Assembly: GCA_002390225.1 (NCBI GenBank) | Contig: DGOW01000054.1 | Location: 71,364-135,363, forward strand | Direction of reading: 5' to 3' | DNA: 64,000 bases | DNA from: Gemmatimonadales bacterium UBA4456 | GTDB taxonomy: Bacteria > Gemmatimonadota > Gemmatimonadetes > Longimicrobiales > Gaopeijiaceae | Shown here: in pieces, positions 50,709 to 55,048 of the stretch | Layout of the letters: each line of letters opens with the position of its first letter | Position numbering within the stretch: position 1 is the first letter of the stretch | Position numbers and translations under genes: made by a program | The notes under the pieces: model-generated | The model's input: only the letters and a program-made list of their open reading frames with translations | The model's database searches: none | Told to the model about the DNA's origin: nothing

Positions 50709-51155
50709 TCAGGCCGTTTTTCTCTCAAGGTCCAGATCGAAGATCATATCCGAGGTTACTTCCCCAAGCGGCGTACCGCCCCGAAGGATGACACGGGTTA
50801 CGTCGCCATCAAGATAAAGAGGGTAAGCCCAGCTCCCGTATTGTACGACCTGAATCAATTCTGGGGCGCTCGCACACGGGGACGGGCTCACTCGTTCAGT
50901 GATCGCCCGCCAGACCCGGTCGACCAGCGCCATGCGCTCCTGAACCGAATCTGCCCAAAGTGCCATGCGGATCCGCTTGCGCTCTTCGAGGGTTAGAGAC
51001 CGAACGATTCGGCGATGGCCACGGAACGAGTGCGAGAGGAGCAACGCAATCGCCTCGCCCTCGGGAATCGGCTCCAGTCCATGGTCATGGTAACCCGGCG
51101 TTCGCACTCGTCGGGTGTCAGATATGTCGAGGTAACCGTCGGCTGCGATTCGCAT
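50709..51155 (-). CDS. hypothetical protein
   Basis: 148 aa with somewhat lower GC than its surroundings. No family recognised. Confidence 0.5.
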   Translation of the reverse strand: MRIAADGYLDISDTRRVRTPGYHDHGLEPIPEGEAIALLLSHSFRGHRRIVRSLTLEERKRIRMALWADSVQERMALVDRVWRAITERVSPSPCASAPELIQVVQYGSWAYPLYLDGDVTRVILRGGTPLGEVTSDMIFDLDLERKTA

Positions 51156-51397: not shown

Positions 51398-52264
51398 ATG
51401 ACTCACGACATTGATGAACTAGGGGCACACGTGTCCGCGAGCGGGGGCGTTGACCGGGCTCCCGGTCGGGCTCGGGACATCGACGCGGCAGTCCTTCAGC
51501 TGTTCACGAAGCAACCGAGCCGTTGGGCGGAGTCCGTGATCGACGAGGAGACCGCCAAGGCATTCAAGGCGGCCAGGGTCGAGCAAGGGGTTACGGTCGC
51601 GGGCGCCCATGACTCTTACCTGATCAACCTGTCCACACCGGACCGTCGGTTGTGGCGGATGTCCCAGCGCTCGTTCGAAGCGGAGCTGCATCGGTGCGCG
51701 CTCCTTGAACTCGACTTCCTCGTGACGCATCCTGGGAACGCAACGGACCAGGAATACGAGGCGGGCCTGGAGCGCAACGCGAAGGGTGTGACCGAATCTC
51801 TGGAGGCGGTGGACGGCCCCACGCGCGTGCTCCTCGAGATCACAGCCGGGAGCGGCACGAGTGTCGGCGCGACATTCGAGAACCTCCAGACAATCATCGA
51901 GATGATCCCGACGGAGCAGCGCCACCGGGTCGGCATCTGCTTCGATACGTGTCACGCTTTCAGTGCGGGTTACGACCTGGTCGATGACTACGATGGAGTC
52001 TGGACAGCCTTCGATGACATCATCGGTCTCGATCGACTGGGGCTGCTGCACCTGAATGACTCTCAGCATCCGTTCGACTCACGTAAGGATCGGCATGAAG
52101 CCATCGGGGAGGGGAGTCTTGGACTCGAGCCCTTTCGTCGTATCGTGCTGGACGAGCGACTGGTCGGGGTTCCCAAGGTGCTCGAGACCCCGAAGGGTGA
52201 CGACGGTGAACAAGCCGACATCCGTAATCTGACCGTGCTGCGCACCCTGCGCGTCGAGGGCTGA
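51398..52264 (+). CDS. nfo: endonuclease IV
   Basis: Internal Met of ORF 51278..52264 gives MTHDIDELGAHVSASGG. Contains HPGN, CFDTCH and LHLNDS metal-ligand blocks. Confidence 0.92.
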   Translation: MTHDIDELGAHVSASGGVDRAPGRARDIDAAVLQLFTKQPSRWAESVIDEETAKAFKAARVEQGVTVAGAHDSYLINLSTPDRRLWRMSQRSFEAELHRCALLELDFLVTHPGNATDQEYEAGLERNAKGVTESLEAVDGPTRVLLEITAGSGTSVGATFENLQTIIEMIPTEQRHRVGICFDTCHAFSAGYDLVDDYDGVWTAFDDIIGLDRLGLLHLNDSQHPFDSRKDRHEAIGEGSLGLEPFRRIVLDERLVGVPKVLETPKGDDGEQADIRNLTVLRTLRVEG

Positions 52265-52307
52265 GTACTCGTGACCCCTGGCGGCACAGTCCCGTCCCGA
52301 AAAAACC

Positions 52308-52337
52308 TTCGCAAATAGGCGCACCGTCGTCTATATT
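52308..52337 (+). promoter_or_regulatory. candidate sigma70-type promoter for the pterin-operon leader
   Basis: TTCGCA, 18 nt, TATATT. This is the only AT-rich hexamer pair in the spacer. Untested. Confidence 0.3.
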
Positions 52338-52343
52338 TTCCTC

Positions 52344-52551
52344 AGGCAGTCGAGGGGCTTTTTATTGAGCCAACACTTCGAAGCCGGGACTGACTCCTGG
52401 ACACGACGCTAAGCCCCGGAAGAGGGGAAAGCGGCAAGGTTTGGGGAAGTCGCCACTCGTGGATTCCCGGGCTTCAATGAATCCCCCCTCGGTTGCAGCG
52501 GGGGTCGTTGTGGGTTGCTTAGGCGACAGACATCGGCCCCCGCATTTTTTT
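52344..52551 (+). ncRNA. candidate cis-regulatory leader RNA (riboswitch/attenuator-like), class unknown
   Basis: Long-range helix 52380-52389 / 52465-52475. Internal hairpin CCCC-ggaaga-GGGG (52414-52427). Alternative pairing of the G-run 52498-52504 with C-runs at 52483-52488 or 52537-52543. Ends in T7. Confidence 0.5.
52498..52551 (+). terminator. intrinsic terminator-like element (GCGGGGG ... CCCCCGC + TTTTTTT)
   Basis: 7-bp G/C closing stem around a 32-nt interior with further pairing (GTCG/CGAC), followed by A and seven T. It lies 113 nt upstream of the operon ATG. Confidence 0.55.
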
Positions 52552-52664
52552 AGCGTTCCTCCACGGGTCGAGCATTAGGTTGGGCGCGGCGCGGTATGGA
52601 TCGCCCTGCGACTGTGCGGGTAGGCGTCGGTTCTGCTGAGGGACACTTTGAACGAGACGGAGCC

Positions 52665-53090
52665 ATGCCAACGGTTCGCGTGACCCGCCGAGCACACTTC
52701 TGCTCGGCTCATCGTCTGTATCGCCAAGACTGGTCGGATGAGCAGAACCGGGAAGTCTTTGGAGACTGCTCGAATCCGAACTGGCACGGGCACAATTACA
52801 TCCTCGACGTGACCGTCGAGGGTCCGGTCGATCCGGGTACCGGATTCGTGATGGACCTCAAGGCGCTCAAGTACGCAATGAAGGAGCGTGTGGTCGATGA
52901 GGTCGATCACCGTAACCTCAATCTCGAGGTTTCCTGGCTTGAGGGGATGATGCCCTCGACCGAGAACGTCGCTGTAGCCATCTGGAACAGGATTGCCGAG
53001 GTCATGCCGGATGGCGTGCGGCTGCATCGGGTCTTTCTGCAGGAGACTGCCAACAATTCGGCGGAGTACCTGGGCCGGGACGGAGAGTGA
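52665..53090 (+). CDS. 6-pyruvoyl-tetrahydropterin synthase / QueD-family protein (eukaryote-type PTPS-like sequence)
   Basis: Internal Met of ORF 52596..53090. FCSAHRL...[15 protein letters not shown]...TGFVMDLK...DHRNLN...[10 protein letters not shown] closely parallels the mammalian PTPS blocks (GKCNNPNGHGHNY etc.) as I recall them. Confidence 0.88.
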
Positions 53091-53094
53091 AAAC

Positions 53095-53691
53095 ATGACG
53101 TATGAGAGTGGTGCAGACCTTTCCGACGTAGACTTCGAGGATCTGGTGGCCGAGATGATCCGTCGGTGCGGAGACACGCCGGATCGGGAAGGCATGATGA
53201 AGACGCCCGAGCGCGTCGCGAAGTCGATGGCGTTCCTGACGAAAGGATATGGCGAGTCGCCGAAGGCCGTCGTCGGTGACGCGATTTTCTCGGAGAACCA
53301 CCAAAGCATGGTCCTCGTGAAGGATATCGAGCTGTACTCGCTGTGCGAGCATCATATGCTCCCGTTCTTCGGCAAGGCCCACGTCGCATACATCCCGAAC
53401 GGCAACGTGATGGGACTCTCGAAGGTCGCTCGACTGGTAGAGGTCTACGCACGCCGATTCCAGGTGCAGGAGCGGCTGACGGAGCAGGTCGCGCAGGCGG
53501 TCTGGGAGACGACGAACCCTCAGGGCGTCGCCGTCGTGATCGAGGCGTACCATCTGTGCATGATGATGCGGGGCGTACAGAAGCAGAACTCGAAGACTCT
53601 GACCTCTGCCATGCGTGGGATCTTCCTCCAGGACCACCGTACGCGGGACGAGTTCATGCGTCTGGTCACGAGCACGCACCCGCCCCTTTGA
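53095..53691 (+). CDS. folE: GTP cyclohydrolase I
   Basis: Internal Met of ORF 52993..53691. [37 protein letters not shown]. Confidence 0.95.
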
Positions 53692-54418: not shown

Positions 54419-55048
54419 ATGCACCTCCTGCTCACCGATCGTCTGACCTGTCCCCGCTGTGGTCCGGCGTTCGGCCTCATCCTCCTGGCCGACCAGCTGG
54501 CGGACCGTCGTGTCCGTGCCGGTATCCTGGGGTGTCCCAATTGTCGTGACTCGTTCCGGATCGACGAGGGGTTCGCTGACCTGCGTGCGCCGCCGCGCGG
54601 CCCTGTACTCGAAGGCCAAGCTGGTCAGCCTGAGCGTCCTGCACCTTCGGATGTCGAGCGGGTGGTGGCGCTGCTGGGGATCCACAGAGGACCGGGCACG
54701 GTTGCGGCATTAGGGGCGGCGGCGTTGTATGCCGTGTCACTGGCCGAGGCCGTGGAGGAGATTATGGTTGCTGCGGTCGACCCGGACACGAAGAGCTGGC
54801 CGGGCCATCCGGGGGTTACCCGCATGGTCTCGTCTCCCGGGCTTCCGTTCTTTGATCGCACACTCCGCGGAGCTGTCGTCGATGGCACTCTCGGCCCAGC
54901 GATGCTTTTCGAGGCGTGTCGCTGCACGGCGCCGATGAGCCGTGTCGTGGTCCTCCGTGCGAGTCCGGATGCACAGACGGTCATCGAGCAGGCAGGGCTC
55001 TCGGTGCTCGCCTCCGAGGACGAAACCGTCGTAGCCGCACGGGGCTGA
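54419..55048 (+). CDS. hypothetical protein with N-terminal Trm112-like zinc ribbon
   Basis: 209 aa. LTCPRCG...LGCPNCRDSFRIDEGFADL is Trm112/DUF343-like. The C-terminal part vaguely resembles a methyltransferase fold but has no clear SAM motif. Confidence 0.6.
   Translation: MHLLLTDRLTCPRCGPAFGLILLADQLADRRVRAGILGCPNCRDSFRIDEGFADLRAPPRGPVLEGQAGQPERPAPSDVERVVALLGIHRGPGTVAALGAAALYAVSLAEAVEEIMVAAVDPDTKSWPGHPGVTRMVSSPGLPFFDRTLRGAVVDGTLGPAMLFEACRCTAPMSRVVVLRASPDAQTVIEQAGLSVLASEDETVVAARG

Follow-up and report, generated by a model that had tools for sequence, protein, structure and literature searches.

A conserved structured RNA in front of the pterin operon of Gemmatimonadota, a candidate divergent 6S RNA

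We analysed a stretch of 64,000 nucleotides (nt) of contig DGOW01000054.1, from a bacterium of the phylum Gemmatimonadota, order Longimicrobiales. This whole stretch is called the window, and all coordinates are positions in it. The region of interest is a non-coding segment of the + strand. On its 5' side lies an nfo-like gene (stop codon 52262-52264; Pfam AP_endonuc_2, AP-endonuclease family 2). On its 3' side, outside the RNA described here, lies a linked operon of PTPS (52665-53090), GTP cyclohydrolase I (folE, about 53095-53691) and a short-chain dehydrogenase/reductase (SDR, to 54410), as indicated by the Pfam families PTPS, GTP_cyclohydroI and adh_short and by synteny. An earlier note on this DNA had proposed a riboswitch-like leader of the operon with a long-range helix and a terminator/anti-terminator switch or, as a fallback, an independent small RNA (sRNA) ending at the terminator. 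All the elements that it listed are present: the promoter TTCGCA-18-TATATT, both helix strands, the CCCC/GGGG hairpin at 52414-27, the C-run at 52483-88, GCGGGGG at 52498-504, CCCCCGC at 52537-43, the seven T at 52545-51 and the nfo stop. The existence of a conserved, structured non-coding RNA with a promoter and a 3' hairpin/terminator before PTPS-folE-SDR was borne out by 51 loci and by covariation. We conclude that 52344-52551 (+) is a real conserved structured RNA of Gemmatimonadota.

The + strand at 52340-52555 folded at -101.4 kcal/mol, with z = -4.3 against dinucleotide shuffles. An RNA on the - strand was rejected, as the same region gave only z = -1.1 by the same measure. Single-sequence nhmmer searches detected the element in 29 PTPS-anchored Gemmatimonadota loci, each time on the PTPS strand, and a profile search added one further locus (L032), bringing these to 30. 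The closest match of the window PTPS was 93% identical. To offset the bias of anchoring on PTPS, a pattern derived from the RNA was scanned on metagenome contigs, and 20 of the 120 pattern-matched loci contained the complete element. The remaining loci, about 100, were chance matches. The window, the 30 PTPS-anchored loci and the 20 RNA-anchored loci make up alignment A2 (51 sequences), from which the covariance model R1 was built. As further relatives, the leftover pattern matches were discarded, since R1 gave noise only and one of them (L100) looked coding. Loci of about 10 kb each were examined, and neither nhmmer nor R1 found the element in Bacteroidota, Ignavibacteria and other PTPS loci. 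Conservation of the RNA was hence reached in two independent ways, by PTPS anchoring and by RNA anchoring, on one strand and over 51 loci, with a core of 152-158 nt among homologues.

The consensus structure, derived from A2 with RNAalifold and explicit pair counting, is an irregular rod composed of the stems P1 and P2, a large two-sided internal loop and an apical arm (P3-P4-P5). Double compensatory changes were found in 28 of its 44 pairs, compared to 15.5±2.0 in column shuffles, and none of 500 shuffles reached the observed number. Across the 51 sequences 94.4% of the rod cells were paired, and the covariation score was 0.316, with slid registers at 0.16 or below. The closing stem P1 has 12 bp in the window, formed by 52346-52357 and 52485-52496, a 3' strand that includes the C-run of the earlier note. 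It displayed double changes in 10 of 11 consensus pairs, and a re-pairing test gave -22.5 for the native duplex and -16.3 for permuted ones. The second stem, P2, is UUAUUGAGCC/GGCUUCAAUAA, written in the window as UUUAUUGAGCC / GGC-U-UCAAUGAA; its 5' strand UUUAUUGAGCC (52361-52371) pairs with the 3' strand GGCUUCAAUGAA (52470-52481), with U52473 bulged. This stem is 98.4% paired, with double changes in 4 pairs, among them A-U to G-C in L029 and C-G to U-A in L032. In P3 (52388-52402 with 52439-52451), which comprises helices 4 and 5, 8 of the 12 pairs carry double changes, for example pair 60/108 (CG to UA in 8 sequences) and pair 65/103 (17 double changes), and the stem is present in the minimum free energy (MFE) fold of 33 of the 51 homologues. 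The apical part (52407-52433) holds P4 (CGCU 52407-10 with AGCG 52430-33), double changes being found in 4 of 4 pairs (73/94 UA to CG in 17 sequences), and P5 (CCCC 52414-17 with GGGG 52424-27), where they were found in 2 pairs. Two local hairpins of the window's own MFE fold, H1 (52384-89/52395-400) and H3 (52444-53/52459-68), were set aside because their covariation was weak or absent.

The internal loop between P2 and P3, here called the bubble, measures about 16 nt on its 5' side and 18 nt on its 3' side. The 5' strand, AACACUUCGAAGCCGG (52372-52387), is unpaired in the consensus and is a candidate template for a product RNA (pRNA). It contains the blocks AAC and GAAGCC, almost invariant in the 51 sequences. 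The 3' strand (52452-52469) varies in sequence and in length among homologues. Conserved G-C pairs flank the bubble on both sides. At the end of P2, pairs 29/138 (GC) and 30/137 (CG) are kept in 51/51 sequences and 31/136 (CG) in 49/51, while at the start of P3 pair 50/115 is GC in 47/51 (the others being G-U) and 52/113 is CG in 50/51.

The RNA has what reads as a conserved sigma-70-type promoter. In the window, TTCGCA-18-TATATT was one of three sites returned by a promoter scan, with 0.5±0.7 expected from shuffles. The -10 hexamer TATATT (52332-52337) is exact in 39 of the 49 loci with a -10 box and stands 6-8 nt 5' of P1 in 38. The -35-like hexamer TTCGCA (52308-52313) corresponds in homologues to (C/T)TG(G/T)(T/C)C, TTGAC or TGGAC with the same 18-nt spacing. 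The fixed distance between TATATT and P1 predicts that transcription starts at the base of P1, at about 52343-52345. At the other end, an 18-bp hairpin (52498-52543, -32.9 kcal/mol) is followed by a U7 tract (52545-52551), and together they form an intrinsic terminator in this genome, giving a predicted primary transcript of about 208 nt (52344-52551). A simple terminator scan misses this hairpin because its stem has internal loops; re-pairing of its strands gave -34.6 native and -24.2 permuted. A GC-rich hairpin of 11-22 bp and -24 to -44 kcal/mol is located 0-6 nt 3' of P1 in 51/51 homologues. The terminator of the earlier note holds in this respect and in the U7 tract of the window, whose clade has 7 U. 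It is doubtful as a general feature: the 8 nt after the hairpin contain at least 5 U in only 21/51 sequences, 3-4 in 20/51 and 2 or fewer in 10/51. In most homologues, including the window, a GGGCCGG…CCGGCCC core recurs in the hairpin stem, even between distant genomes, and outside this core the stem covaries freely. The terminator scan also flagged CCUC…GAGG followed by CUUUUUAUU (52338-52357), overlapping with both the 5' strand of P1 and the junction of P1 and P2. This match is probably incidental, as the stem sequence differs in relatives.

The long-range helix pairs GAAGCCGGGA (52380-52389) with TCCCGGGCTTC (52465-52475). Its 3' strand overlaps those of both the bubble and P2, and the helix lies outside the ground-state fold. 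Complementarity of its strands in the window is real, with a duplex of -17.1 kcal/mol compared to -8.1±2.5 in shuffles (p about 0.002). As a ground state the helix was rejected, since it shows no covariation and is mutually exclusive with the covarying P2 and P3. A single pair carries a double change, a result equalled by 260 of 500 shuffles, and the helix breaks in L029 and L062; its figure of 92.5% 'paired' is due only to the near invariance of the two strands. In L032, the 3' strand common to P2 and the long-range helix carries a G to A change, and it is P2 that shows the compensating change, not the long-range helix. The comparison of relatives therefore upheld two of the helices of the earlier note, the CCCC/GGGG hairpin and the terminator stem, both of which covary, and not the third. 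When the P2 5' strand was blocked in silico, as a bound product RNA would do, 42 of 51 homologues formed the long-range helix, with the freed 3' strand of P2 paired to the 5' bubble strand. The duplex is weak in L033 and L062, and L029 retains it with different sequences in a shifted register. These folds are suggestive of a second conformer of the RNA, in which the long-range helix would be a candidate bubble-collapse helix.

The proposed switch was not supported by testing. Pairing of the C-run, in the P1 3' strand, with the G-run, in the hairpin 5' strand, had a native energy of -8.99 kcal/mol against -9.04±0.20 when permuted (fraction 0.60), and the reversed-sequence control reached -10.81 kcal/mol, while the positive controls (P1 and the hairpin) gave 0/2000. 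The anti-terminator complementarity is a composition effect of G- and C-runs. A plausible-looking terminator/anti-terminator layout was here, when tested, an artefact of composition. With the long-range helix lacking covariation and excluding P2 and P3, the riboswitch mechanism as proposed was not supported either.

The RNA was compared with known families. Rfam scans returned nothing at gathering thresholds in the window and 29 relatives. For THF-I (tetrahydrofolate), THF-II/folE motif (RF02977), preQ1-I/II/III, ZTP and Moco, window positions 52200-52720 yielded no match with E values up to 10, and no locus yielded one at gathering. A sub-threshold THF-II match in L141 (21 nt, about 930 nt from the RNA) was dismissed as chance, as were matches to sX14, to BjrC68 (only the terminator hairpin of L062) and to snoRNA and IRES families in permissive Rfam scans. 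The earlier note had seen no match to a list of families that included several of these riboswitches and 6S RNA. This holds for the folate/pterin riboswitches and at gathering level, and it has to be amended for 6S RNA. In a permissive scan the sole full-length similarity was to 6S (RF00013), covering model positions 1-187 of 187 at 52335-52509 (23.3 bits, E=0.01). Sub-threshold 6S matches were also obtained in the divergent L099 (19.5 bits) and L062 (17.6). In the reciprocal direction, R1 ranked the annotated E. coli ssrS top in a 3.2-kb locus, at full length, with UGAGCC, UCACC and GGGUUCAA aligned. The P2 3' strand GGCUUCAAUGAA aligns with GGUUCAAG of E. coli 6S.

In its published definition, a 6S RNA has a closing stem, a terminal loop and a central bubble with conserved G-C pairs on either side (PMC4064990). 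The rod described above has this architecture, with a comparatively supported closing stem, the bubble, the terminal stem-loop and the flanking G-C pairs. 6S RNA has been reported from nearly all bacteria (PMC8414754), and no other 6S candidate was seen in the loci examined. Based on these findings, we propose that 52344-52551 (+) is probably a stand-alone, divergent 6S RNA, the ssrS equivalent of this Gemmatimonadota bacterium. Its core of about 154 nt (52344-52497) is matched by R1 at 52344-52498 with 137.9 bits and is present in the 51 loci. This identity is also favoured by the conserved promoter, by the independence of the RNA from the operon in some loci, by the alternative helix and by the place directly 5' of a folate/pterin gene, which ssrS shares. 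The fallback of the earlier note, an independent sRNA ending at the terminator, comes near to this reading.

Several observations weigh against a 6S identity. Neither the window nor the 29 relatives reached the RF00013 gathering score of 46.4 bits, and the sub-threshold match appeared in just 3 of 10 homologues tested, L032 giving no match to any family. The R1 match to ssrS was marginal (11.7 bits, E about 0.02) and tied with an unrelated hairpin. 6S RNAs are usually about 160-200 nt long (PMC8414754), which places the core of 152-158 nt at or below the short end of the range. In the window the rod (-57.5) is 9.5 kcal/mol less stable than the molecule's own multi-branch MFE fold (-67.0). The search for 6S covered the loci of about 10 kb, and a canonical 6S may sit elsewhere in these genomes. 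Finally, about 45 of the 48 informative loci have the RNA before PTPS/folE, a very tight linkage of the kind that a cis-regulator would display too.

If the RNA is a 6S RNA, its cycle can be sketched by analogy. The promoter would start the RNA at the foot of the 12-bp P1, and the hairpin with U7 would end it. The rod with its central bubble would mimic an open promoter and sequester the housekeeping RNA polymerase holoenzyme. During outgrowth, the polymerase would copy the 5' bubble strand into the P2 5' strand, beginning near the invariant AAC at 52372-74 and yielding a short product such as 5'-GUUGGCUCAAUAA. This product could strip P2 and free GGGCUUC, which would then pair with GAAGCC(GGGA) of the 5' bubble strand to form the long-range helix. 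Collapse of the bubble would release the polymerase. In described 6S RNAs, pRNA synthesis disrupts P2, after which a central-bulge-collapse helix forms (PMC4793215). On this reading the PTPS-folE-SDR operon simply lies 3' of the RNA, as fau/ygfA lies 3' of E. coli ssrS. In this genome the operon probably has its own promoter at 52598-52623, and where a poor U-tract goes with a short gap, read-through probably co-transcribes it.

The strongest competing explanation is that the element is some other structured sRNA, stand-alone or co-transcribed, which acts by target pairing, by protein titration or by stabilising or processing mRNA, and whose resemblance to 6S arose by convergence. Its own promoter and 3' hairpin fit this explanation, and so do the sub-threshold and inconsistent 6S similarity, the marginal reciprocal match and the rather short core. 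However, the combination of a closing stem, a large bubble with invariant G-C flanks and a long arm is specific to 6S-type RNAs, the UGAGCC…GG(C/U)UUCAA blocks are placed in the structure as they are in E. coli 6S, and an alternative helix like that of bubble collapse is present. Moreover, base-pairing sRNAs typically have a long, conserved single-stranded seed, which is absent here: of the two strands of the bubble, one varies and part of the other is used by the alternative helix. The near-universal report of 6S in bacteria (PMC8414754), with no other candidate in any locus, points the same way. We regard this explanation as unlikely, while taking it seriously.

A further alternative is that the RNA is a new cis-regulatory element, a riboswitch or a protein-binding leader, in which a pterin, folate or GTP signal gates read-through of the hairpin into PTPS-folE-SDR. 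The position of the RNA favours it. Of 48 informative loci, about 45 have it directly 5' of PTPS or, if PTPS is lacking, of folE, and these include 16 of the 19 RNA-anchored loci; linkage to nfo on the 5' side is much looser. In many genomes the gap between hairpin and start codon is 30-100 nt with no recognisable promoter, which would make the RNA the leader of the operon mRNA. Two mutually exclusive conformers (P2/P3 and the long-range helix) would also suit a regulator, and, with no match among the known riboswitch families, this one would be new. Against this, the anti-terminator shows no co-evolution and is weaker than its composition control, and the alternative helix leaves the hairpin out, so that it cannot gate termination. 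At least 5 U in the 8 nt after the hairpin are present in only 21/51 sequences. The most invariant nucleotides are those of the base-paired P2, and the internal loop has one strand of variable sequence and length, unlike a ligand pocket. The association also has exceptions in both directions. In L146 and L168 the RNA precedes cytochrome b with promoter, rod and hairpin all intact, and L024 and L030 carry an intact operon without the RNA 5' of it. In L032, CopC and CopD stand between the RNA and PTPS (2.2 kb). Regarding the linkage itself, E. coli ssrS lies 20 nt 5' of fau/ygfA, a folate enzyme gene, in the annotated locus, and this adjacency has been reported as widely conserved (PMC4064990). 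As ssrS itself adjoins a folate gene, a tight folate/pterin linkage is compatible with a 6S RNA and does not by itself indicate cis-regulation.

A separate promoter-like motif 3' of the hairpin also speaks against regulation in cis. In the window it is the two-block GGATCGC-N12-CGGGTAG (52598-52623), a candidate alternative-sigma promoter of PTPS-folE-SDR. The exact motif is found in 11/51 loci (the window, L001-L005, L007-L010 and L109), and about 10 further loci have the less strict version GGA(A/C)(A/C)C…GGGTA (L012, L015, L018, L098, L104, L108, L141, L171, L186). Generalised as GGA(T/A/C)C–N15-16–GGGTA, it lies between the hairpin and the PTPS/folE start in about 20 loci, with a spacer of constant length and variable sequence. 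This pattern resembles an alternative sigma promoter (ECF, that is extracytoplasmic function, or sigB/F-like) that may drive the pterin operon. Taken together, a role as cis-regulator appears improbable to us.

The weakest alternative, that there is no functional RNA and the region holds a DNA-level element, such as a promoter/operator of nfo or of the pterin operon, or encodes an unannotated small protein, can point to promoter-like elements and to two short open reading frames (ORFs) wholly inside the region, of 45 aa (+) and 31 aa (-), but it is effectively refuted by compensatory changes over about 150 nt, by the strand-specific fold and by homologue indels of 1-2 nt that break the frames, which together with the base-pair-compensating changes speak against a coding role for these ORFs.

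The neighbourhood of the RNA displayed further features. The window PTPS carries a C-x5-HGH motif, and we take this protein to be nearer to PTPS-II of the biopterin pathway than to QueD. Judging by gene content, the combination of PTPS, folE and SDR suggests a tetrahydrobiopterin-like pterin pathway rather than queuosine or folate synthesis. A second, distant PTPS/QueD-like paralogue (27-29% identity) is found just 3' of the SDR in L012, L021, L027 and L160, about +1.9 to +2.2 kb from the RNA, and L013 has two folE matches. In L024 (CAMDFJ010000153.1), labelled 'Candidatus Kuenenia stuttgartiensis', the PTPS-folE pair is 64-74% identical to Gemmatimonadota genes; the label may be a binning error of a metagenome-assembled genome. 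In the window, the SDR is followed by an ORF of 209 aa (54419-55048, +) with an N-terminal zinc-ribbon-like motif, LTCPRCGPAFGL. It is conserved 3' of the operon in several relatives, such as L108 and L138, and had no Pfam match. Another conserved hypothetical ORF, at 50709-51155 (-), contains …DGYLDISDTRRVRTPG…LLSHSFRGHRR… and likewise had no Pfam match. Its homologues lie 5' of the RNA in L146 and L138, and this proximity to the RNA persists where both nfo and the pterin operon are lacking.

These findings bear on the annotation of a phylum that abounds in soil and water and of which very few species are in culture. Should the RNA be the 6S of Gemmatimonadota, it would fill an annotation gap, as the Rfam 6S model at its cut-off found nothing in 30 sequences (the window and 29 relatives), and A2 with its 51 sequences and R1 could be used to annotate the RNA. 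Our literature searches found no paper that pairs 6S RNA with Gemmatimonadetes, Gemmatimonadota or Gemmatimonas, and none that pairs it with folE/PTPS. Folate/pterin genes would then have come to lie next to a 6S-type RNA on two apparently independent occasions, ygfA in Proteobacteria and PTPS-folE here, and we consider this more likely than the cis-regulatory alternative. Such a double linkage, if true, implies a functional coupling that has never been explained, and it turns the puzzle of ssrS and ygfA into a comparative question. A rather doubtful prospect, by comparison, is a new phylum-wide pterin regulator acting in cis, either a pterin/GTP riboswitch or a bifunctional 6S-like leader that ties sequestration and release of the polymerase, through a product RNA initiated with GTP, to GTP cyclohydrolase I. 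If it were true, the RNA would be a new, large class of pterin riboswitch and considerably more important.

The RNA can be compared with several known systems. THF-I, THF-II and preQ1 share with it the position 5' of folE or of pterin-pathway genes. THF-II, however, is a small hairpin of 39 model positions, whereas the RNA described here is a 155-nt rod plus a hairpin. Ms1 offers another parallel. It binds the RNA polymerase core and is about 300 nt long, with a different architecture, and no similarity of sequence or model to Ms1 was detected in our RNA. Ms1 is described as a lineage-specific 6S-related RNA of Actinobacteria that generic 6S models missed and that was traced through synteny (PMC9130861). 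The RNA of Gemmatimonadota would likewise be a lineage-specific, 6S-like structured RNA outside the reach of generic 6S models. Bacillus subtilis 6S-1 (bsrA) provides the model for the proposed cycle: in our RNA, too, P2 could be opened by a product RNA and replaced by a pre-encoded helix in which its released 3' strand pairs with the 5' side of the bubble. Unlike in 6S-1, the collapse helix is here an in silico structure, and the complementarity is weak in two divergent members, L033 and L062. From E. coli ssrS the RNA differs in having a core of about 154 nt instead of 184 nt, a strong 3' hairpin/terminator where the ssrS-fau gap is 20 nt without an annotated feature, and PTPS-folE-SDR instead of 5-formyl-tetrahydrofolate cyclo-ligase as neighbours. 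Both RNAs are rods with a closing stem, a large G-C-flanked bubble and a terminal stem-loop. Both display UGAGCC / GG(U/C)UUCAA blocks at the closing-stem side of the bubble, CUGAGCC aligning with the P2 5' strand. Both appear to be preceded by a sigma-70-type promoter and lie directly 5' of a folate/pterin gene on the same strand.

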